UHGV virus genome: UHGV-0358078
Source: a virus
Reading direction: 5' to 3' (one strand)
Length of the DNA: 13,471 bases
Position numbers and translations under genes: made by a program. This document shows positions 1,725 through 13,471 of this stretch, piece by piece. Numbering within the stretch: position 1 is the stretch's first letter; every line of letters begins with the position of its first letter. The notes under the pieces are model-generated. The model did not search any database, had not been told where the DNA came from, and was given only the letters and a program-made list of their open reading frames with translations.

Positions 1725-2035
1725 TGATGGAAAGTAAAATCACAAACACATCGGCACCTGAGAACATTGTCAACTATATTCTCAGTGGCGGGTTGTTAGA
1801 AGACAACAAAGAAACGTGTGATAAACTCGTTTCTCAACTACTGCCGATTCGCTCAGAATATTGCGAAATCGTTATCTTAGGTTCCGAGTATTGCGTACGC
1901 TCTTACTGTCGTCGTTTCGAAGCCTTACGCGTTCCACGTACGTTAGGTGGTGTAATACTCTTAGTCTCTAACTTTCACAGTGCACACGTTCGTGTTGCAA
2001 CCTGGATTGCAAACGGAGGTAACAATGGTTTTTAA
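1724..2035 (+). CDS. Hypothetical protein (103 aa), Cys-rich
   Basis: ATG at 1724 shares one nt with the upstream stop (translational coupling). GAGG lies upstream. Several Cys residues (CxxxxxxC, CxxxC patterns), function unknown. Confidence 0.6.
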   Translation: MMESKITNTSAPENIVNYILSGGLLEDNKETCDKLVSQLLPIRSEYCEIVILGSEYCVRSYCRRFEALRVPRTLGGVILLVSNFHSAHVRVATWIANGGNNGF

Positions 2036-2333
2036 ATTACTAGGTTTCAAATCTTGTAAAGAGTGCGCAAAGCACGAAGAATATATCAAGTTATTAGAAG
2101 AAACAGTTGAAACGCAAAAAGAACTTATCTCTGAATACCGCGCGAAAACCGGTTCAGTAGAATATCTGGCTATCATTGTTTGTTCTATTGCGGAATTGGG
2201 TTGTGAGGGAAAATTACCTAAAGAAGAGATATTAAAACTATTAAAAGAAAAAACAGAGTTCTACCGTAAAGAAATTGATGATTATAAACGTGAAGTTATA
2301 AGAGCGAATTGGGAGGTTATTAATGAAGCGTGA
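2025..2333 (+). CDS. Hypothetical protein (102 aa), N-terminal CxxC
   Basis: ORF track starts at GTG 1980, but an in-frame ATG at 2025 has a strong SD (GGAGG 2015-2019, 5-nt spacer) and reduces the overlap with the upstream gene to 11 nt. N-terminal CKEC motif; K/E-rich helical C-terminus. Confidence 0.65.
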   Translation: MVFKLLGFKSCKECAKHEEYIKLLEETVETQKELISEYRAKTGSVEYLAIIVCSIAELGCEGKLPKEEILKLLKEKTEFYRKEIDDYKREVIRANWEVINEA

Positions 2334-2604
2334 AGCGGTTGTATTTCGTAGTAATGGTGACGTGGTTTTGTATCGTGGTAAGAAACGTATTCGTACGTTA
2401 GAATACCGAGAAGCAAAACGTTTTGTTGAAGAGTGTGCATGGTTAATGCATTACGAAGGGAACTATCGTGCTATCTTAGAAGCTCCGCGTTTAGAACGTG
2501 CGGTTGCACAGATGGCGATAGGTAATCCTAAGAACTGTTACCTGGCACGTAAGCCAAAATACCTACAGCGGCTTTCGTTAGGCAGCTTTATTGCCGGATT
2601 TTAA
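2323..2604 (+). CDS. Hypothetical basic protein (93 aa)
   Basis: ATG at 2323 with GGAGG (2312-2316) and a 6-nt spacer; overlaps the upstream stop by 11 nt. Lys/Arg-rich. Confidence 0.65.
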   Translation: MKREAVVFRSNGDVVLYRGKKRIRTLEYREAKRFVEECAWLMHYEGNYRAILEAPRLERAVAQMAIGNPKNCYLARKPKYLQRLSLGSFIAGF

Positions 2605-2634
2605 TAAAAATAATTTCAGATATATATTACCTAG

Positions 2635-2656
2635 GTGAGAGTTCAGCTACTCTCAC
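2635..2656 (+). other. Hairpin without downstream U-tract, upstream of the SD of gene 2686
   Basis: GTGAGAG (2635-2641) / CTCTCAC (2650-2656), 8-nt loop; followed by ttaaccaaacc, not a T-run. Confidence 0.45.
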
Positions 2657-2685
2657 TTAACCAAACCATTTTAGGAGCATATACC

Positions 2686-3180
2686 ATGAACTTCACTAGA
2701 CTTGATTACACTAACGAATTGGTTGACAAAGAAAAATACAAATTCACTGTTGACTTGGGTTACGGATTACTGGACGTAGAAAAAGATGTTCTGCACAAAG
2801 AATTCCGTGAGCAATTCGGTGCTTTGTTCTGCGCAGGTTTCCGCAGAAACACCATTGATATCGGTTATAGCGCAACAGCGTATACCGATGAAGAAATGTT
2901 TAAGCTGGTAACACAGATTGTCGGAACGCGTGGAGCCAAACGACTCAATTATTCCAACGAACTTGTTTCGAAAGAACATTACAAGTTCACCGTTAGACTA
3001 CCTGTTCGCCTCACAGAAGAAGATAAGAACATCCTCTATAAAGCCCTTCAAACCGAATTCGGTAAAGCGCTCAAAGTAGGGTTCCGTAATCGTAGTATCG
3101 ATATCGGAATTAGTGTGGATGTGTGTAGTGACGATGACCTTTACGAATTAGTTTCGGAAGTTATCGGAAAACATCTCTAA
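2686..3180 (+). CDS. Hypothetical protein (164 aa) built from two tandem ~76-aa repeats
   Basis: ORF track starts at GTG 2635 inside a hairpin; the in-frame ATG at 2686 has AGGAG (2673-2677) with an 8-nt spacer. Residues 5-80 and 86-161 align colinearly (RLDYTNELVDKEKYKFTV... vs RLNYSNELVSKEHYKFTV...; ...NTIDIGYS... vs ...RSIDIGIS...). Confidence 0.75.
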   Translation: MNFTRLDYTNELVDKEKYKFTVDLGYGLLDVEKDVLHKEFREQFGALFCAGFRRNTIDIGYSATAYTDEEMFKLVTQIVGTRGAKRLNYSNELVSKEHYKFTVRLPVRLTEEDKNILYKALQTEFGKALKVGFRNRSIDIGISVDVCSDDDLYELVSEVIGKHL

Positions 3181-3220
3181 ACTTAAATTAACACTTCGAC
3201 TTGTAAATAAGGAATAGAAT

Positions 3221-3694
3221 ATGTTTAGCTTAGAAATCAACAACAACGTTCATGCCGCTTTCCATTCAGTAGAAAAAACCTATAAAATTAAAGATCTGTT
3301 TACTGGCAGAAGCGATGCTTTTTCGCTGATTAAGAATGGATGGAGAAAAAGCAAAGAGCTGAAACGTGATTCAAACCTTTACATTATTGAACGTTTAACT
3401 GTAACCGACAACCTTGTCACTGCACGTTATGACTTTGTTGTAATGGACGCTTTCATCCCGTTAGACAAACTGGTTATCTTGGCTGACAATGGGGAACGCT
3501 ACGAGGCGGGCGAGAACGGTGAACGTTCATTTACTAATGACGGTAAACTAAAAGTTCGCCATTCTGTAATGGCAGTTTGCTACGATGGTGAATGGTTAAG
3601 ATCTCTGAATAAAGGATTGGATTTGATTGACGCCGATGATTTAGAAAATTTCGCCGATGTTTTCTCCAACTATTTGTTTGAATATAAGTGGTGA
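3221..3694 (+). CDS. Hypothetical protein (157 aa)
   Basis: ATG at 3221 with AAGGA 7 nt upstream. Contains a short peptide repeat (DNGERY / ENGERS). No recognised domain. Confidence 0.75.
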   Translation: MFSLEINNNVHAAFHSVEKTYKIKDLFTGRSDAFSLIKNGWRKSKELKRDSNLYIIERLTVTDNLVTARYDFVVMDAFIPLDKLVILADNGERYEAGENGERSFTNDGKLKVRHSVMAVCYDGEWLRSLNKGLDLIDADDLENFADVFSNYLFEYKW

Positions 3695-3699
3695 GTTCG

Positions 3700-4131
3700 A
3701 TGAGAAAAGAACTAAAATCAGAGTTACGTGATTACATTCGTAAATACCCAGCCAGTATTCCGGTACTGGCTTCACTCTCTTTATCGGGTATGGACCTTAA
3801 TACCCTAACGGTAGAAAAATTCCACGAAGTGGTGAAGTCGTCGTATCAAATTGTTACCGATATGTCAGTGCGGAAACGTGCTGACTACCCAGACGGTGAT
3901 TTCGGTACAGAGATGTTCACGGACTACGCAGTTGCGTATCTGATGGGACGTCACTTTATCGATAAACTCAATACGGCTGTAGAAGGAGAAACCGTTACGG
4001 AAATTGTCAATGCTTGGCAACAACGTATTGTGAGTGACGCTTACTGTCGTCAAGCCTTAAAGAAAATGTCGGCGGTAGCATTAACCAATGACCAACGTGC
4101 TTTAGAGTTCCTTAAGCACAACTACGAATAA
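3700..4131 (+). CDS. Hypothetical protein (143 aa), paralog of the gene at 4997..5428
   Basis: ORF track starts at GTG 3688; the in-frame ATG at 3700 has a GGTGAG SD-like sequence upstream. Same length as, and colinear with, the protein at 4997 (LKSELRDYIRKYPASIPVLA vs LKDDIRNYIRNNPIALGVLA; ...ADYPDGDFGTEM vs ...EEYPVGELGDTM; ...LEFLKHNYE vs ...LMYLAHNVR). Confidence 0.75.
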   Translation: MRKELKSELRDYIRKYPASIPVLASLSLSGMDLNTLTVEKFHEVVKSSYQIVTDMSVRKRADYPDGDFGTEMFTDYAVAYLMGRHFIDKLNTAVEGETVTEIVNAWQQRIVSDAYCRQALKKMSAVALTNDQRALEFLKHNYE

Positions 4132-4920: not shown

Positions 4921-4928
4921 TTAACGAC
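4913..4928. repeat. Perfect 16-bp palindrome GTCGTTAATTAACGAC across the stop codon of gene 4153..4920
   Basis: Positions 4913-4928 read identically on both strands. Lies 18 nt upstream of the terminator stem. Confidence 0.8.
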
Positions 4929-4945
4929 ATTCTAAATTCAACCAA

Positions 4946-4978
4946 GGGGTGGTAATCCACCCCTCTATTATTGTATTT
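4946..4978 (+). terminator. Intrinsic terminator candidate
   Basis: Perfect 7-bp GC-rich stem GGGGTGG (4946-4952) / CCACCCC (4957-4963) with loop TAAT, followed by a T-rich tract (tctattattgtattt). Confidence 0.7.
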
Positions 4979-4979
4979 A

Positions 4980-4995
4980 CCTAAAGGAGCATTAA
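4980..4995 (+). promoter_or_regulatory. Conserved 16-nt translation-initiation block CCTAAAGGAGCATTAA, copy 2
   Basis: Identical to 476-491; immediately upstream of the ATG at 4997 and just downstream of the terminator at 4946-4978. Confidence 0.45.
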
Positions 4996-4996
4996 A

Positions 4997-5428
4997 ATGT
5001 TTTTCGTATTAAAAGATGATATCCGTAACTACATTCGTAACAATCCGATTGCGCTGGGCGTTTTAGCAGGTTTCTGTCGTCCAAATACTGACTTCGATTT
5101 AGTTAAGTTAGAAGAATATCAAGAAATTGTGAACACTACCTACATGCACATCTGTAGCTGGGGTAAACGTCCTCGTGAAGAGTACCCTGTGGGTGAGTTA
5201 GGTGACACCATGCACCGTGACCAGAACCTGATGCACGAATTCGTTGAATACACACTGGAAAATCTTAACTATCCGCTCCTGGTCGACACTGTACCAGAAA
5301 TGGTTGACGAATGGTTTAAACGTGTTTATAGCGATCCTACCGCCAACAAGTTACTGAACCAGATGTCACAAACTTCTCGTGACATCGACACTCGTACGCT
5401 GATGTACTTAGCACACAACGTTCGCTAA
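4997..5428 (+). CDS. Hypothetical protein (143 aa), paralog of the gene at 3700..4131
   Basis: ATG at 4997 with AGGAG inside the conserved 16-nt block 4980-4995. Paralogy to 3700..4131 described there. Followed by a strong UUCG-tetraloop terminator. Confidence 0.8.
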   Translation: MFFVLKDDIRNYIRNNPIALGVLAGFCRPNTDFDLVKLEEYQEIVNTTYMHICSWGKRPREEYPVGELGDTMHRDQNLMHEFVEYTLENLNYPLLVDTVPEMVDEWFKRVYSDPTANKLLNQMSQTSRDIDTRTLMYLAHNVR

Positions 5429-5435
5429 CCTCTCT

Positions 5436-5490
5436 CCGCTATAGGCTTCGGTCTATAGCGGAATTAATTTTCTTTCCCTTTTCTTTTTTT
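5436..5490 (+). terminator. Intrinsic terminator, 11-bp stem with UUCG tetraloop
   Basis: ccgctataggc (5436-5446), loop ttcg (5447-5450), gtctatagcgg (5451-5461), one G-U pair. Followed by a long T-rich tract (…ttttctttcccttttctttttttt). Lies 8 nt after the stop of gene 4997..5428. Confidence 0.8.
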
Positions 5491-5597: not shown

Positions 5598-6446
5598 ATG
5601 TCTCTTACGTCAAAACAGAAACTGCTAAAACTCATCAACACTGAAAACAATATTAGTCCACCGTTGACTTTCAGTGATGTTGATATCGGAGAACCTACTG
5701 GTACTGGGGTTGATACCCAGGTGGTTCTGACCTCTAAACTCAAAGGCGATGAGTCTACTACTTTAACAGTGACTTACCACCGTCGTAACTTACCTGACTA
5801 CCTAACAGGTGAGTTGGTATTCGGTAACGACAATGTGGTAACCGCATCCGATTTGCTTAATGCGATTAACGCAAAATACAACCTAAATATTTTACCCTCG
5901 GATATCGTTGACGCAAAAGTTGAAGGTGAAACCCATCAGCTTACCGCTAACGAGAAATCTTACGAGTGGTGCGGTGTAGTAACACTTACGCTGCGTGATC
6001 CTATTGACCTGACTGAACTGTTACCAGTTACTCAATTAGAGAATCTGGTAGAGTATCCGTCTACTAAGAAAGGTAACGCTGCGGTTTATTCTCACCCGAT
6101 TGATTTCACCGCAGAAAAAGATTACCTTGACCCGATTACTATCAACGACACCGTCGACTTAGTAGAGTTAGCCACTAAACTGGCTAACGTCGTTGATGAG
6201 AAATGGGTAAGTGTACCTAAAAACGCGGCTAACAACCTGTACGGTGCTAAAGTTATTTACGATGGCCCAACCGCAGGTTACGAAGGCGCAAATACGAAGT
6301 TCACTCGTGTGCTGGTACTGACTCTCAGCCCGTTGTGTTCTAACCTGACCGGTAATCTGTTAATCCACTTTAACGGTACCGATCGTCCGAAGTCGAAGAT
6401 TGAATTAGCACAGACTAATCCGGTCTTACCGGGATTCTTAGATTAA
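5598..6446 (+). CDS. Paralog-family protein (282 aa), possible virion/structural protein
   Basis: First ATG after a 169-nt intergenic region; weak SD (GTGAG). N-terminal ~70 aa (…LINTENNISPPLTFSDVDIGEPTG…TQVVLTSKLKGDESTTLTVTYHRRNL) is colinear with the N-termini of the genes at 6460, 9626 and 10234. T/V/N-rich, acidic composition. The structural role is inference only. Confidence 0.8.
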   Translation: MSLTSKQKLLKLINTENNISPPLTFSDVDIGEPTGTGVDTQVVLTSKLKGDESTTLTVTYHRRNLPDYLTGELVFGNDNVVTASDLLNAINAKYNLNILPSDIVDAKVEGETHQLTANEKSYEWCGVVTLTLRDPIDLTELLPVTQLENLVEYPSTKKGNAAVYSHPIDFTAEKDYLDPITINDTVDLVELATKLANVVDEKWVSVPKNAANNLYGAKVIYDGPTAGYEGANTKFTRVLVLTLSPLCSNLTGNLLIHFNGTDRPKSKIELAQTNPVLPGFLD

Positions 6447-6459
6447 GAGGATTACAGTA

Positions 6460-6957
6460 ATGACCAATCAAGAAACTATCTTCGACCTTATTAAAAAGGC
6501 TAACCCAGACGCTGAGTTCGACACCACCAAGGTCACGCTGGGTGACCCGGTCGTAACCACCGGTACGTACAATACCGAAATCACAGTTGCGTCAATTAAG
6601 AATCTCGGTTACACTAACGAACAAACGTTCCAGTATAACCGCATTGACGCAGGTTTGTATTTCCTGAACGTATTACCGAAACTGTTAGTGGAGTCTGCAA
6701 CGACTACCGCTGACTTACTGCCCGTAATTAACGAACAGTACAGCCTAACCCTTACAGAAGACGATGTATGGGTAGAACAGGTCGGTGAATTACCGCTGGA
6801 CGGCAGTGCAATCGAGCACGGCATTTTCTTCCGTCCTGAATGTTTAACCTGGGTAGGCGGTTTTACGGTGCGCGTTGCACGTAAACCTGCTGAAGATGTT
6901 GAACCTGCGCCAAAAGCAGCTAAAGCACGTACAACTCGTGCACGAAAATCCAAGTAA
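6460..6957 (+). CDS. Paralog-family protein (165 aa) with basic, A/K/R-rich C-terminal tail
   Basis: ATG at 6460 with AAGAGGA upstream. N-terminus (…LIKKANPDAEFDTTKVTLGDPVVT…NTEITVASIKNLGYTNEQTFQYNRID) matches the family motif. C-terminal PAPKAAKARTTRARKSK. Followed by a strong terminator. Confidence 0.8.
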   Translation: MTNQETIFDLIKKANPDAEFDTTKVTLGDPVVTTGTYNTEITVASIKNLGYTNEQTFQYNRIDAGLYFLNVLPKLLVESATTTADLLPVINEQYSLTLTEDDVWVEQVGELPLDGSAIEHGIFFRPECLTWVGGFTVRVARKPAEDVEPAPKAAKARTTRARKSK

Positions 6958-6960
6958 GAT

Positions 6961-6998
6961 TTGGGTGGGGTAAAACCCACCCAACGTTTTTCTTTTTT
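6961..6998 (+). terminator. Intrinsic terminator
   Basis: Perfect 9-bp stem ttgggtggg (6961-6969) / cccacccaa (6976-6984), 6-nt loop, then cgtttttcttttttg. Starts 4 nt after the stop of gene 6460..6957. Confidence 0.85.
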
Positions 6999-8978: not shown

Positions 8979-9003
8979 TACCCTCCTGCTAAGCAGGAGG
9001 GTA
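8979..9003. terminator. Bidirectional terminator between convergent genes
   Basis: Stem taccctcctgc (8979-8989) / gcaggagggta (8993-9003) with a 3-5 nt loop. A/T-rich on both sides (aaataaacc upstream, tttattatt downstream), so it is followed by a U-tract in either direction. Confidence 0.75.
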
Positions 9004-9007
9004 TTTA

Positions 9008-9487
9008 TTATTCTACCGGGTGCAGCATAGTTCCGGTGTCTGGGATACTGCCTTCGTGACATCTGAAGAACGTTACGCCTTTACCTTCACCCGTTTTGTA
9101 GTTGACGGTGGAATACGCAAACGTTGGGGTTTTCGACAGTAACCCGTTTACACGGTAATAGCGCTCACCGGTAACGACGTTTAAGTTACCGTCCACCTTA
9201 CCTAACAGGTCTTTATAAAGTTGCGGAGATTCAATTTTACCTTCGTCCCATGTAGCGACCCAATTCGCCCCTGTATCCATGACTAACACCGAAAGGGGCA
9301 TCAGTTTTAGGCTAGACGGTACCGGTTTAAAATCAGCGAATTCTTGAGAAGCACCTGTACAGGTGTAAATGACCATATCGTGTTGGTCAACAGGTACGGT
9401 GGAGAACTGACCTTCTGCGTTCGGCTGAATAGCACAACCTGCCAATGTCATTACAAAAGCAACGACCACGAGAATGCGTTTTAGCAT
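9008..9487 (-). CDS. Predicted outer-membrane lipoprotein (159 aa)
   Basis: N-terminus MLKRILVVVAFVMTLAGC has a basic n-region, hydrophobic core and lipobox L-A-G-C, with Ala at +2 (no Asp retention signal). SD-like GGGTGAG upstream on the minus strand. Opposite in orientation to all neighbouring genes and followed by a bidirectional terminator. Confidence 0.8.
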   Translation of the reverse strand: MLKRILVVVAFVMTLAGCAIQPNAEGQFSTVPVDQHDMVIYTCTGASQEFADFKPVPSSLKLMPLSVLVMDTGANWVATWDEGKIESPQLYKDLLGKVDGNLNVVTGERYYRVNGLLSKTPTFAYSTVNYKTGEGKGVTFFRCHEGSIPDTGTMLHPVE

Positions 9488-9625
9488 AATCTCACCCTTA
9501 TTAAAATTAAGAAAAATTATTTTTTCAGGTTAGCGCCTACTGCCAACCGTCATATCTATATTTTAGGAAATGTCTAAAATAACTTTCTTATGCAATCCAC
9601 CCCTACCACTTACGAGGTAAAAAAG
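9488..9625. promoter_or_regulatory. Divergent intergenic region, probable promoter region for the lipoprotein gene (minus) and gene 9626 (plus)
   Basis: 138-nt AT-rich gap between divergently oriented starts. On the minus strand, TTGGCA (plus-strand tgccaa 9541-9546) is followed about 17 nt later by an A-rich -10-like hexamer. This is a weak match, not a confident sigma-70 promoter. Confidence 0.3.
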
Positions 9626-10162
9626 ATGGCTAAAGCCTTCAAACAACAGCTCATCGAAGCTGTAATTGCTAAAAACTCAGACACCGCTTCTAATCTGACG
9701 GTTGGTGATGTCGATTTTGGCGCTGTTGCTGAGTTCAGCGGAGACGCTGGTCGTAACACCAAAATTACGCTGACCGCCAAGGCAGAAAGCCAGAACTTCA
9801 AAGGCGAGAAAGAATTCCATTATATCCGTCTGGCTTCTCAAGACCTGATCGGTGCCAAAGCTTACGAACAAGCCGGTAGCCTCGAACTGGAAAACTCGGT
9901 CATTGTAACCAAACTGAACGAAGAAATGGTTACTAAAGGTTATGTCGATGACGAGTTTGCAGAGAGCGAACTGTCCATTGAGAAAACTGACGGGGATAGT
10001 GGTGCTAAAGTTTACACTGTCAAAGTAAGCGAAGGCCACATCAAATTCCTGGCTGGTACCATTGCCACCTTCACTTATTCCAACCCAGCTCCTGAGAAGG
10101 TAGCTCTGGACGGTCTGGAAGGTGAACTTGATGGCTTTACTGCACCGGGTGTCGGTGGCTAA
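9626..10162 (+). CDS. Paralog-family protein (178 aa), possible virion/structural protein
   Basis: ORF track starts at ATG 9590 with no SD. The in-frame ATG at 9626 has GAGG with an 8-nt spacer and gives an N-terminus colinear with the paralog at 10234 (MAKAFKQQLIEAVIAKN… vs MAATNQMMLVALYNAAN…). Both end in ELDGFTA. Followed by a G12-containing hairpin. Confidence 0.8.
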   Translation: MAKAFKQQLIEAVIAKNSDTASNLTVGDVDFGAVAEFSGDAGRNTKITLTAKAESQNFKGEKEFHYIRLASQDLIGAKAYEQAGSLELENSVIVTKLNEEMVTKGYVDDEFAESELSIEKTDGDSGAKVYTVKVSEGHIKFLAGTIATFTYSNPAPEKVALDGLEGELDGFTAPGVGG

Positions 10163-10171
10163 GTAAATTAA

Positions 10172-10198
10172 ATCGGGGGGGGGGGGACCTCCCCCGAT
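10172..10198 (+). terminator. Terminator-like hairpin containing a G12 homopolymer
   Basis: atcgggggggg (10172-10182) pairs with cctcccccgat (10188-10198), one G-U pair; followed by atttctc…tattttt. Starts 10 nt after the stop of gene 9626..10162. Confidence 0.6.
10175..10186. repeat. G12 homopolymer tract
   Basis: Twelve consecutive G at 10175-10186, inside the hairpin after gene 9626..10162. Confidence 0.9.
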
Positions 10199-10233
10199 AT
10201 TTCTCTAACTCGTATTTTTAAGGACCTAAGATA

Positions 10234-10764
10234 ATGGCCGCTACTAACCAGATGATGTTGGTCGCGCTTTATAATGCTGCTAACACTGAGCTACCACATC
10301 AGATTACTGATAAAGAAGTGTCCTTTGGTCTCCCTACTGCGCTGGAAGGCGAAAGTAAGAATACCAAAGTTACCATGACTGCACTACCGGGTTCTGAGAA
10401 TTTCAAAGGCGAAATCGAACTGCATTACGATCGTCTGGAGCCAGGTGTTGTAGGGCGTATTGAACTAACTGACGATCTGTCTCGTTGGGAAGATCAAAAC
10501 GAATTGCGCGCATGGTTACAATATTACATTAATAAAGTTAAACCGGACGATGCTATTCATCCAGCGGACGTTTCTTATTCTACCGAAGACCAGAAAGACG
10601 AACATGAAAACGTCACTCTGCGTACCGTGACGTGCACCGTTACCGAAAAGAACCTCCGTTATAAACCAGGTGTAATGGCAACTTTCGTAATTACACCGAA
10701 GGTTGTTGATAATCGTATTGACCTGGCCACCACCAACGGTGAGTTGGACGGTTTTACTGCTTAA
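10234..10764 (+). CDS. Paralog-family protein (176 aa), possible virion/structural protein
   Basis: ATG at 10234 with AAGGA 9 nt upstream. Shares the family motifs (…VSFGLPTALEGESKNTKVTMTALPGSENFKGEIELHYDRL…) and the C-terminal GELDGFTA. Followed by an 11-bp bidirectional terminator. Confidence 0.8.
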   Translation: MAATNQMMLVALYNAANTELPHQITDKEVSFGLPTALEGESKNTKVTMTALPGSENFKGEIELHYDRLEPGVVGRIELTDDLSRWEDQNELRAWLQYYINKVKPDDAIHPADVSYSTEDQKDEHENVTLRTVTCTVTEKNLRYKPGVMATFVITPKVVDNRIDLATTNGELDGFTA

Positions 10765-10802
10765 TCGCTAAGTCAACTACTATAACAAAAAAATAATAAA
10801 TT

Positions 10803-10829
10803 TACCTACCTCCTTTACGGAGGTAGGTA
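10803..10829. terminator. Bidirectional terminator between convergent genes
   Basis: Perfect 11-bp stem tacctacctcc (10803-10813) / ggaggtaggta (10819-10829), loop tttac. Flanked by aaaaaaataataaattt upstream and tttttattct downstream. Confidence 0.8.
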
Positions 10830-10833
10830 TTTT

Positions 10834-11508
10834 TTATTCTAATCCCATTTCCAGTGCAAGAGCACGGATAGTGTCGTAGTCACGCTGTTCAGCGTACTGA
10901 CGAATTTCACTTTTCTGGGCAGACATCGCGTTGTGTAGCTGTTGGTCACGTTTCACAATAGCCGCCAGCAACGTTTTACATTGTTCCAGCGTAAACGGTT
11001 CTATACGTGTATTCGACGTGTCCAACCAATAATCCGGTGCAGTTTCAGACTGGATATATTGGCCCAGCATCTGACGAGAGGTTTCGTCAGCTTGGAAATG
11101 ACGACCGTCAACTTCGATATAACCGTGACGCTGGTCTTCGTATCGGTGTTCAATTTCCAACATGATTTTCTGGATATCTAAATAGATATAGCGAGACGTC
11201 GAGCGCATATTCGAACGAATCTCATCCAGATCAATCTCCAGAACGTCAGTAATGAATTCTTTTGCTTTATTCAGTGTAAACTTCGACTCGATAGGAGACA
11301 TTTCGTAAGTTTGCATCTGAGCTAAAGCTTCTTCATCACTCATCCCTTCAATCAACTTATAGTGCAGTAAAGCACAGAACCCCGTACGTCCACGGTCTTC
11401 GTTACCTACACGCTCCATGTAGTTACCGTGACGGTCAATTGGGAGATCGTGAGCGAAATAACGCGCTCGAATCTCTTCTTTCGTTAAGCTTTTGTTAGAA
11501 GCAGACAT
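10834..11508 (-). CDS. Hypothetical protein (224 aa), last gene of the radical SAM operon
   Basis: ATG at 11508 (minus) with GGAG 7 nt upstream; overlaps the upstream gene's stop by 25 nt. Stop sits next to the terminator hairpin at 10803-10829. No motif recognised. Confidence 0.75.
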   Translation of the reverse strand: MSASNKSLTKEEIRARYFAHDLPIDRHGNYMERVGNEDRGRTGFCALLHYKLIEGMSDEEALAQMQTYEMSPIESKFTLNKAKEFITDVLEIDLDEIRSNMRSTSRYIYLDIQKIMLEIEHRYEDQRHGYIEVDGRHFQADETSRQMLGQYIQSETAPDYWLDTSNTRIEPFTLEQCKTLLAAIVKRDQQLHNAMSAQKSEIRQYAEQRDYDTIRALALEMGLE

Positions 11509-12050
11509 TCTTCTTCTCCAACCATACCTAATTCTTGCAGCAAGCCAAAATCAATCAACTGGAAGGTTTCAGAGAGATCGTTTGACCACACCACGTTTGC
11601 AATGTCGCGTTCTTCATCCGTTAACTGTGGTAACACATTTTCGTTGAACGTCTGATGCTCTACGTAATACGCATCGTAGATAGACGTGGAACGTAAGCAA
11701 CGGATCGGCATACGCGGGAAAGACACCGCTAATGCAGCAATAGATGCGCTACTCGGATTCTCCGCAGAATAACGAAGCAATTCGATCTTGTGGCGTGGAT
11801 AGTCCAGTACGCGTTGCTCGAAACCCGGATTACGTTTTTCGATTTCCACAACGGACTCATGGCCTGTTTCTGTACAGTAAACGGGAATCATCACGTTTAG
11901 CCCGTACTTAATTAACAGGGGTTTAATCTCATCTGTAAAGTCTTCGCCGGGGATAATGGCGTGGACGTTATAGAGTTTATGTTTGCGCAGAAAACGCTCA
12001 ACCAGGTGGAGTTTACGCTTCGTAAAATTGTGGATCAGAATTGATTTCAT
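11484..12050 (-). CDS. Hypothetical protein (188 aa), radical SAM operon
   Basis: ORF track begins at ATG 12074 with no SD. The in-frame ATG at 12050 is preceded by GAGG with a 6-nt spacer, which also shortens the overlap with the radical SAM gene to 38 nt. No P-loop or PP-loop motif. Function unknown. Confidence 0.7.
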   Translation of the reverse strand: MKSILIHNFTKRKLHLVERFLRKHKLYNVHAIIPGEDFTDEIKPLLIKYGLNVMIPVYCTETGHESVVEIEKRNPGFEQRVLDYPRHKIELLRYSAENPSSASIAALAVSFPRMPIRCLRSTSIYDAYYVEHQTFNENVLPQLTDEERDIANVVWSNDLSETFQLIDFGLLQELGMVGEEECLLLTKA

Positions 12051-13347
12051 TATTTGCCTCAGTAGGTTGTGCATTTAACGCACGTTTAGCTTGCTCACGC
12101 TCACGCGTACATTTCGGACAGTAACAAACAGACGAATCGTGCAGAGACGATGCGTGGACGGTACCCGTACGTTGACGCCAGTATTCTGCCGCCATCAGTT
12201 TTGCAGTCGTCCAACCACATTGACGTCGTTCAGCGTGGTACGCCTTACGGTCTTCCAGTGTCCCTTCACCGTTTTCGTAGGAAGCGGCTGCACAGCTCCC
12301 ACAACCGTGTTTCATCGGACAGCCTAAGCACGTTTCAGGATAGTTGGTGTATTGCGTCTGAATCTCTTCCAGCAGTTTCCCGCCGTCTAAGCTAACAAAC
12401 TCACGACCGACTAACTCAAACACCGCAGAGCGTGACGTTACCGTTGACATGAATCGGTTACAACCATACACCTTACGGTCAAAACCTAAGCAGGTCATAA
12501 ACGTCAACGTCCCACAGAACGGACGTAAACGTTCAGGGTTATAACGGTGCGTGTCGTCGTACAGCAGTTTATCACGCCAATCTGGGTCCCAAATCTGACG
12601 GAAATCCAGACCTTCAGGAATGATGTGGGACAACACGTTACGTGGATTGGTGTGCAGCCCTTTCTCAATCCAATAATCCATCACCTCGATCATCTGCAAC
12701 GCAATATCCGTTGCCATGCTCCGTGGAAGGATATCTTCGTACGTCACGTTACCTGAAATCGTACCGCCACCGGCAATATCAATTAACGACTTCATACTCG
12801 CCGCGTAATGCGGTAAGGTTTCGGTCGTGAAGGTTGCCTTGATACCCAGTTCGGCAATCCCCACTTCTTTTAAGTAGTTATAGCCACGAACGGCGGCTTC
12901 GTAAGAACCCTGACGCGTCGTTGTAAAAATACGATAGCGGTCATGAACTTCTGGCAACCCGTCGATAGACACACCGATGGAGAGTTTGTCTTTCCAACGC
13001 TCAACAATCTCACGGTTTAACGGACGGTCTAACAACGTCCCGTTCGTGGAGATACTGAACATATACGGACGATTATGCTCCTTACACAGCTGTTCTGCGG
13101 TTTCAAACGCCGCTAACAACAGTTTCGGTTGCATAAAAGGTTCGCCACCGATGATATCAATAATGACGTCGATGTTCGGAATATCTTTATCACGCTCAAA
13201 ACAGGCGTGTAAGAAATCCACGATATCCGCCGCTTTGTTATTACGCGGATACTTACGTTCGTAACAATACTCACAATCTAAGTTACAAGACAGGTTCGTT
13301 ACCACCTGGTAAGTACGTTGTGAACGTGGTGCTTCATTATTGCTCAT
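12013..13347 (-). CDS. Radical SAM enzyme with C-terminal SPASM-type Cys-rich domain (anSME-like architecture)
   Basis: CNLDCEYC (CX3CX2C) at residues 21-28; IGGEPF SAM-binding motif; STNGTLL and SIDG…HDRYR motifs typical of SPASM-family radical SAM enzymes. C-terminal clusters CGTLTFMTC…C and CLGCPMKHGCGSC (CX2CX5CX2C), plus a further CYCPKC. ATG at 13347 with AGGA 9 nt upstream and an in-frame stop three codons upstream. Confidence 0.9.
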   Translation of the reverse strand: MSNNEAPRSQRTYQVVTNLSCNLDCEYCYERKYPRNNKAADIVDFLHACFERDKDIPNIDVIIDIIGGEPFMQPKLLLAAFETAEQLCKEHNRPYMFSISTNGTLLDRPLNREIVERWKDKLSIGVSIDGLPEVHDRYRIFTTTRQGSYEAAVRGYNYLKEVGIAELGIKATFTTETLPHYAASMKSLIDIAGGGTISGNVTYEDILPRSMATDIALQMIEVMDYWIEKGLHTNPRNVLSHIIPEGLDFRQIWDPDWRDKLLYDDTHRYNPERLRPFCGTLTFMTCLGFDRKVYGCNRFMSTVTSRSAVFELVGREFVSLDGGKLLEEIQTQYTNYPETCLGCPMKHGCGSCAAASYENGEGTLEDRKAYHAERRQCGWTTAKLMAAEYWRQRTGTVHASSLHDSSVCYCPKCTREREQAKRALNAQPTEANNEINSDPQFYEA

Positions 13348-13471
13348 CTTTGCTTATCCTTTTACGCTCTGCATAAATCACGCGTTTAATGTACTCGTAA
13401 GCACCTACTCCGATAGAGCAAGCAAGCTGATTGCACCCACCGTTTAAGATAGCCGGTGCATTCTGAAGCTG
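13337..13471 (-). CDS. 3' end of an upstream gene (partial, start beyond window); first gene of the radical SAM operon as seen
   Basis: The only minus-strand frame open from the window edge, 44 codons then TAA (plus-strand tta at 13337-13339); overlaps the radical SAM start by 11 nt. C-terminal translation …QLQNAPAILNGGCNQLACSIGVGAYEYIKRVIYAERKRISKDEQ. Not in the ORF track because it has no start within the window. Confidence 0.45.
   Translation of the reverse strand, partial: QLQNAPAILNGGCNQLACSIGVGAYEYIKRVIYAERKRISKDEQ

Follow-up and report, generated by a model that had tools for sequence, protein, structure and literature searches.

A length-variable G run in the predicted stem of a terminator-like hairpin between two DUF7941 paralogs of an SPN3US-like jumbo phage

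Why should a phage genome carry twelve consecutive guanines in the short spacer between two co-oriented, paralogous genes? We examined this question in a stretch of viral DNA of 13,471 nt, hereafter the window, in which an uninterrupted G12 run occupies positions 10175-10186. A preliminary description of the locus read the run as one arm of a terminator hairpin, warned of sequencing or assembly error, and proposed that changes in its length would alter terminator strength and thereby switch expression between the flanking paralogs. The features to which the text below refers are as follows; L048 and L049 denote two assemblies that match the window almost completely.

9626 to 10162, plus strand: upstream paralog, 178 amino acids, DUF7941 (matches to PF25613 and phrog_4862)
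10172 to 10182, plus strand: 5' arm of the hairpin, ATC and the first eight G of the run in the minimum-free-energy fold
10175 to 10186, plus strand: G12 run, which reads G10-T-G in L048 and L049 and G8 to G11 followed by T in other relatives
10183 to 10187, plus strand: loop GGGGA in the predicted register of the fold
10185, plus strand: discordant base, where the window has G and the L048 and L049 assemblies have T
10188 to 10198, plus strand: 3' arm CCTCCCCCGAT, compared across the spacers of relatives
10199 to 10208, plus strand: T-rich tail ATTTCTCTAA, from sequence scan and comparison of relatives
10220 to 10224, plus strand: Shine-Dalgarno-like AAGGA, 9 nt 5' of the ATG of the downstream paralog, read from the sequence
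10234 to 10764, plus strand: downstream diverged paralog, 176 amino acids, DUF7941 by profile match (PF25613)
10803 to 10829, no strand assigned: bidirectional terminator-like hairpin TACCTACCTCC/GGAGGTAGGTA, which closes the two-gene unit and resembles the hairpin after SPN3US gp160

The spacer contains an inverted repeat composed of ATCGGGGGGGG (10172-10182), the GGGGA loop (10183-10187), and CCTCCCCCGAT (10188-10198). The hairpin lies on the sense strand, with 9 nt separating it from the TAA (10160-10162) of gene 9626-10162 and 35 nt from its end to the ATG at 10234. RNA folding predicts an 11-bp stem, including one G.U pair, with a minimum free energy of -23.3 kcal/mol; with G-C pairs at eight of the 11 positions and a loop of 5 nt, this is a GC-rich stem-loop with a short loop. 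A scan for terminator-like sites, run with a lax rule, also accepts the hairpin with its tail ATTTCTCTAA, and fold and scan thus agree with the initial assignment of the G run to one arm of a terminator-like hairpin that follows gene 9626-10162. The run itself is far beyond chance, as base composition predicts 2.4e-4 runs of G12 or C12 in the window, where the second-longest G/C run is 5. The folding energy is no better than that of dinucleotide shuffles (z = -0.69), a score that is uninformative because such shuffles retain the G and C runs. A search of positions 9400-10900 with Rfam covariance models at E of 1 or less gave no meaningful or credible family match.

The proteins and gene order of the window match those of the jumbo phage group that comprises SPN3US, phiEaH2, and Phobos, with a shared order of GH108 endolysin, DUF1353, M15-like peptidase, a small reverse-strand gene, the gp160 homologue, DUF4376, and radical SAM genes. 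Tandem radical SAM genes (12013-13347 on the minus strand, and beyond) adjoin the structural and lysis block, as does SPN3US gp163. The two genes on either side of the hairpin are 28% identical to each other. The upstream copy shares about 46% identity with SPN3US_0160 (gp160), together with the same surrounding gene order, and the downstream copy about 36-38%; on this comparison, gene 9626-10162 is the closest homologue of gp160 in the window. SPN3US gp160 is an abundant head protein, present at more than 300 copies per capsid, and belongs to the large paralog family B (PMC5694885). A single copy of gp160 occupies this locus in SPN3US.

The upstream paralog is a mosaic hot spot, with 30-69% identity in four related genomes (L011, L012, L013, and L035) whose flanking genes exceed 90%, and the downstream paralog (10234-10764) is much more conserved. 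One relative, L015 (IMGVR_UViG_3300014543_000002), encodes three tandem gp160-like paralogs at 1846-3531, of which the third corresponds to gene 10234 as its orthologue; the first of these is followed by another hairpin, AAGGCGGtaaatCCGCCTT, and no hairpin lies between the second and the third. Two further tandem DUF7941 (PF25613) paralogs are found in the window itself at 5598-6446 and 6460-6957, 13 nt apart and with no hairpin between them.

Related contigs were gathered through protein look-ups, pattern scans, and BLAST. The hairpin is found in 41 contigs of this enterobacterial, SPN3US-like jumbo phage, in 13 sequence versions, and every one of the 13 folds into a stem of at least 8 bp with a predicted energy between -18.6 and -26.6 kcal/mol. 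No GenBank phage matched the region by megablast, and a more distant blastn search gave a sole match of 155 nt in Erwinia phage Phobos. An 18-mer scan of genome contigs returned 11 matches, all in unrelated organisms and close to the number expected by chance (estimated at about 17); of the metagenome matches to the 18-mer, most were likewise chance and five were true relatives. The longest G run is distributed among the contigs as follows.

Longest run 6, as G6-A-G3: 2 contigs
Longest run 8: 2 contigs
Longest run 9: about 11 contigs
Longest run 10, the commonest: about 20 contigs
Longest run 11: 6 contigs
Longest run 12: 1 contig, the window

In nearly all of these contigs, TG or TA comes next after the run, with ACCT behind it. 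A subset of 34 contigs was found via protein, and so was not selected on the hairpin, and contains 24 distinct spacers. Across these 24 spacers the 3' arm CCTCCCCCGAT has not a single substitution, with variation confined to the length of its C run (C4, C5, or C6), and the first six bases of the tail, ATTTCT, are invariant; nine of the 13 positions that follow vary. The AAGGA stretch at 10220-10224 is near-invariant among relatives as well. Two genomes have an A within the G run of the 5' arm. In L072, which reads ATCGGGGGGAGG-GTGA-CCTCCCCCCGAT, G6-A-GG stands opposite CC-T-C6 to give a perfect 12-bp stem with a GUGA loop and an energy of -26.6 kcal/mol; in L007 an identical 5' arm faces C5. 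Loop substitutions are confined to bases 2 and 3 (TG, TA, or GG ahead of the final A), and the 4-nt loops predicted for relatives with nine G before the T, and for L031 with G11, are GUGA or GGGA, which fits the GNRA pattern. The invariant arm and tail, the stems of L072 and L007, and the GNRA-type loops together indicate, at the level of sequence comparison, selection on the stem-loop itself. L015, whose downstream protein is 91% identical to that of the window, lacks the element.

The length of 12 is a separate matter from the existence of the hairpin. An exact-protein look-up with the product of gene 9626-10162 found it in just two assemblies.

L048: ENA ERZ28645344, TETT19-3_SAMN11265251_METAG-scaffold_50, 114,762 bp
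L049: ENA ERZ27295778, k119_13626, 13,751 bp

Both match the window at 13,470 of 13,471 positions, and the L049 contig contains the window entirely. The sole mismatch falls at 10185, which is G in the window vs T in both assemblies, so that the site there reads G10-T-G. Among the 41 contigs compared, a run of 12 is unique to the window. The G12 homopolymer is present in the window as first described, but its length is reproduced neither in L048 and L049 nor in other relatives, and the warning of sequencing or assembly error attached to it was apt. By comparison of these genomes the long G run in the hairpin is real and conserved, and its length of 12 hangs on one doubtful base, since two otherwise identical assemblies have T at 10185. 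The window, L048, and L049 may be separate assemblies of the same or very similar reads.

We regard a base-calling or assembly artefact as a somewhat better explanation of the G at 10185 than a real change. Sequence-specific errors of Illumina reads concentrate at inverted repeats and terminators; 49-62% of the miscalls repeat the preceding base, and T-to-G is a favoured conversion (PMC3141275). Position 10185 reproduces this context exactly, as a T that follows a G run within a terminator-like inverted repeat and is read as the preceding G, and it is the only one of 13,471 positions at which two other assemblies disagree with the window. Errors of this kind show at read level as strand bias and a drop in quality; the case here is seen in assembled sequence. 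A plausible though less favoured account is that the window stems from a third phage population, identical but for a real T-to-G mutation that arose, for example, by transient misalignment within the run. The divergent genome L031 (about 88% flank identity) is also uninterrupted at this point, with G11-ACCT, which indicates that T-to-G recurs here and could be real; furthermore, 10185 is the free N, the second position, of a GNRA-type loop, where a change would be neutral. RNA folding returns the same structure and energy with T or G at 10185, and neither reading of the base is predicted to affect the fold.

Tract length does change over evolutionary time. On a neighbour-joining tree of 17 genomes, it has changed at least eight times, and pairs of genomes that differ by about 2% in their flanks usually differ in tract length; in all three comparisons with identical flanks, tract lengths were identical. 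Judged from these comparisons, the tract is an indel hot spot on the evolutionary scale, with no visible instability between identical genomes. At G8 to G11 in relatives and G12 in the window, the homopolymer is long enough to slip (6-7 or more), and the preliminary description was right to call the tract slippage-prone. The further step, that length variation changes terminator strength, fared differently. In the predicted folds of pure length variants from G8 to G12, the stem is 11 bp throughout and the energy lies between -20.1 and -22.6 kcal/mol, with the loop alone varying, from 3 to 6 nt. Stem stability is buffered in these folds because each C or U of the 3' arm accepts any G as its partner, and surplus G slides into the loop.

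These folds bear directly on the proposal that the run is a hypermutable contingency tract, the length of which sets terminator strength, read-through, and hence the ratio of the two paralogs in the virion. Its appeal lies in the G8-G11 differences among relatives and their eight or more changes on the tree, in the persistence of the run in a 222-kb relative where G/C runs of at least 6 are depleted about 8-fold, and in recent descriptions of phage homopolymer contingency loci, of which a few are intergenic (bioRxiv 10.1101/2025.10.21.683753). However, the predicted stem and energy are almost independent of length, genomes with the same flanks have the same lengths, and the tract lies outside both an ORF and a promoter spacer, the two contexts of known switches. 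The comparison of tract lengths among relatives that had been suggested does reveal variation, but L015 dispenses with the element altogether, and the G12 state is not reproduced. The tract is intergenic and its predicted stem and energy are unchanged by length, and computation accordingly gives no indication that a length change alters expression; we find no support in silico for an expression switch between the paralogs and consider such a tract very improbable. Still further from probability is the suggestion that the run forms a G-quadruplex, in RNA or single-stranded DNA, with a regulatory or polymerase-blocking role. A canonical three-tetrad quadruplex takes four runs of at least three G, that is, at least 15 nt. 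Isolated G12 can reach a two-tetrad form at -18.0 kcal/mol (ViennaRNA), but when quadruplexes are allowed in the folding the hairpin at -23.3 kcal/mol remains the best structure, and G10-T-G, the form of two identical assemblies and of most relatives, makes no quadruplex at all.

The reading that we favour, at a probability of roughly 0.55, is that the site is an ordinary intergenic stem-loop of the Rho-independent type that follows the gp160 homologue and acts as a leaky terminator or RNA 3'-end, with the surplus G neutral and the G at 10185 likely an artefact. Most likely, the hairpin would end or stabilise the majority of transcripts of the upstream gene and let a fraction read through, and this fraction would leave the upstream paralog in excess over the downstream one. 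The make-up of the 3' arm, CCUCCCCC, would explain why the 5' arm is a G run. Pairing would need eight G, of which one would face U in a G.U wobble, and some relatives have A at the wobble position, giving a true A-U pair. Slippage during replication would add or remove surplus G, over the range of 8-11 found in nature, and the surplus would go to the loop; stem and stability being buffered, the length polymorphism would be effectively neutral.

The surroundings of the hairpin are in keeping with a terminator. The window contains 29 terminator-like sites, vs 13.1 +/- 3.7 in shuffles. Five other gene-end hairpins on the plus strand pass the same scan (4945-4964, 5435-5462, 6961-6984, 8979-9003, and 10803-10829), and their T-rich tails are similarly interrupted. 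SPN3US, Erwinia phage Phobos, and L015 each place a hairpin of unrelated sequence where this one stands, after the gp160 homologue. The complete relative described below has many hairpins with GGGGG and CCCCC arms, one of which, GGGGGAGGTgctttACCTCCCCC, is the perfect form of the 10172-10198 stem. The conservation of the tail also speaks for a terminator, but as a U-tract AUAUUUCUCU is poor, with never more than three U in a row; ATTTCTCTAA has five T in its first eight bases. SPN3US-like and phiKZ-group phages use their own multisubunit RNA polymerases, and the transcribing polymerase here is probably the phage's own; to our knowledge, the termination signals of the SPN3US-like enzymes are poorly defined. 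No promoter of the sigma-70 type turned up in a scan of the sequence from the hairpin to gene 10234, and we know of no promoter motifs for the polymerase of this group. RNase III processing was judged unlikely on general grounds, as an 11-bp stem is short for the enzyme.

A second site weighs against a terminator assignment. We scanned for homopolymers a complete relative, NZ_CP173450.1, annotated as a 221,873-bp circular plasmid of E. coli 98232. This genome contains six G/C runs of at least 6, vs about 51 expected from composition, and is thus about 8-fold poor in them. The count falls from 87 G/C runs of exactly 5 to four of exactly 6, and A runs reach 10. Just two G/C runs of at least 7 are present in the entire genome, which bears out the original remark on the rarity of long G/C runs. 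The first is orthologous to the site discussed above (G9), and the second is a G10 in another intergenic spacer (44653-44662). The genome from which the window derives has G9 at this second site, at L078 853-861, about 1.7 kb to the left of the window. The second site reads AATC-G9/10-TGAAATGTTTTTAGCCAACATTTTGCGTCTCCCC, with UCUCCCC as the partner arm; the AATC and TGA flanks and a C/U-rich partner are common to both sites. Its G run lies at the base of a long hairpin (z = -3.2) in which five genomes show pair-compatible changes and which ends 8 nt 5' of an AGGAGG and the GTG start of another DUF7941 paralog, without a U-rich tail. Sequence 5' of AATC is wholly different between genomes, where a gp38-like adhesin cassette has been swapped, and from AATC onward it is conserved. 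An apparent frameshift in the DUF7941 gene of this site, at about L078 1090-1100 (scaffold_50, ERZ28645344), proved to be a 10-N scaffold gap that splits the gene into two ORFs.

These observations raise the alternative that the hairpin belongs to the downstream gene, as part of its 5' leader or as a module-boundary cassette (AATC-Gn-TGA...CUCCCC) that recurs before certain DUF7941 paralogs. Such a cassette could act on mRNA stability, processing, or translation, or as a recombination site at which cassettes are swapped in the manner of PeSLs. It is notable on this account that the sole two G/C runs of at least 7 share flanks and partner arm and each lie 20-35 nt before a DUF7941 start codon; we estimate the chance of seven matching flank bases at roughly 1e-4. 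The second hairpin, with its z of -3.2, its pair-compatible changes in five genomes, and conservation that begins at AATC, is suited to the same role. At the first site, the upstream paralog of L011, L012, and L035 has 52-69% identity, whereas the hairpin and the downstream gene have 84-97%, and a hairpin that stays with the downstream gene in three mosaics would suit a 5' leader or a module boundary no less than a terminator. However, there are just two copies per genome, the DUF7941 paralogs at 5598-6446, 6460-6957, and 9626-10162 do without the element, and no promoter-like sequence accompanies it. L015 retains the downstream paralog without the element; there, another paralog lies directly ahead of it with no hairpin between. 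The first site also has a conserved T-rich tail, for which a pure leader has no need. We consider a leader or boundary cassette unlikely on balance. More ambitious, and quite improbable, is a combined reading in which the two AATC-G(9-11)-TGA hairpins constitute a dedicated cassette whose slippage-prone G arm tunes attenuation, mRNA fate, or recombination, and through these the amounts of capsid paralogs.

Returning to the favoured terminator reading, the site resembles intrinsic terminators that serve as operon attenuators in its GC-rich 11-bp stem, short loop, and T-rich tail, and in its position on the sense strand, where a stop codon directly precedes it and the genes on either side are co-oriented. 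It differs from them in that the tail AUAUUUCUCU is interrupted, the polymerase is probably that of the phage, and the 5' arm is an over-long G run of polymorphic length; termination here is a prediction from sequence. Length-variable G runs have been described in several other settings. The contingency loci of T2/T4 (bioRxiv 10.1101/2025.10.21.683753) and the hypermutable polyG tracts of Campylobacter Fletchervirus (Sorensen et al. 2021, as cited in that preprint) are likewise homopolymers that change length between close phage genomes, as the 8-11 G do here. Known phage contingency loci frameshift an ORF, whereas the tract here is intergenic, its length is absorbed by the loop, and no consequence is predicted. 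In the leader of Helicobacter pylori tlpB, an untranslated G repeat of variable length pairs with a C/U-rich sequence of the small RNA RepG (PMC8295292), as the G run here pairs with a C/U-rich arm. That pairing is in trans and its length regulates, in contrast to a cis hairpin of which the length is predicted to be neutral. We know of no small RNA for this phage site. Finally, the PeSL cassettes of T4-type phages (PMC2839356, PMC4122927), composites of promoter and stem-loop, are short conserved motifs that border variable cassettes, and both G-run hairpins lie at mosaic boundaries; unlike PeSLs, they belong to another phage family, number two in 222 kb, and have no sigma-70-like promoter that we could find.

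A terminator-type hairpin with a slippage-prone and structurally buffered G arm is a fresh instance of a familiar type. It provides an example of a homopolymer that is unstable and yet structurally buffered, and because an unstable tract can be buffered in this way, length polymorphism alone is not evidence of a switch. That the 12-G run rests on one base not shared by two otherwise identical assemblies also cautions against building upon its length. The second, similar hairpin before another paralog offers a small lead into how jumbo phages regulate or shuffle their families of head-protein paralogs.

Several minor observations were made along the way. The translations of 3688-4131 (147 amino acids) and 4997-5428 (143 amino acids) are paralog-like, with similar N-terminal halves, and the 181 residues encoded at 2635-3180 include an internal two-fold repeat (LDYTNELVDKEKYKFTV... 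and LNYSNELVSKEHYKFTV...). The spacers at 436-491 and 4921-4996 both end in CCTAAAGGAGCATTAA(A) immediately before an ATG, and the ribosome-binding region appears to have been duplicated. The phage has no close match among GenBank phages. It is present as a circular "plasmid" in two complete bacterial genomes, those of E. coli 98232 (NZ_CP173450.1, 221,873 bp) and Enterobacter ludwigii 51A:C (NZ_CP134650.1, 222,441 bp), and contigs of about 220-226 kb occur in many assemblies of Salmonella enterica, of E. coli, and of gut metagenomes. This pattern suggests that the host carries the jumbo phage as an episome or in a carrier state.
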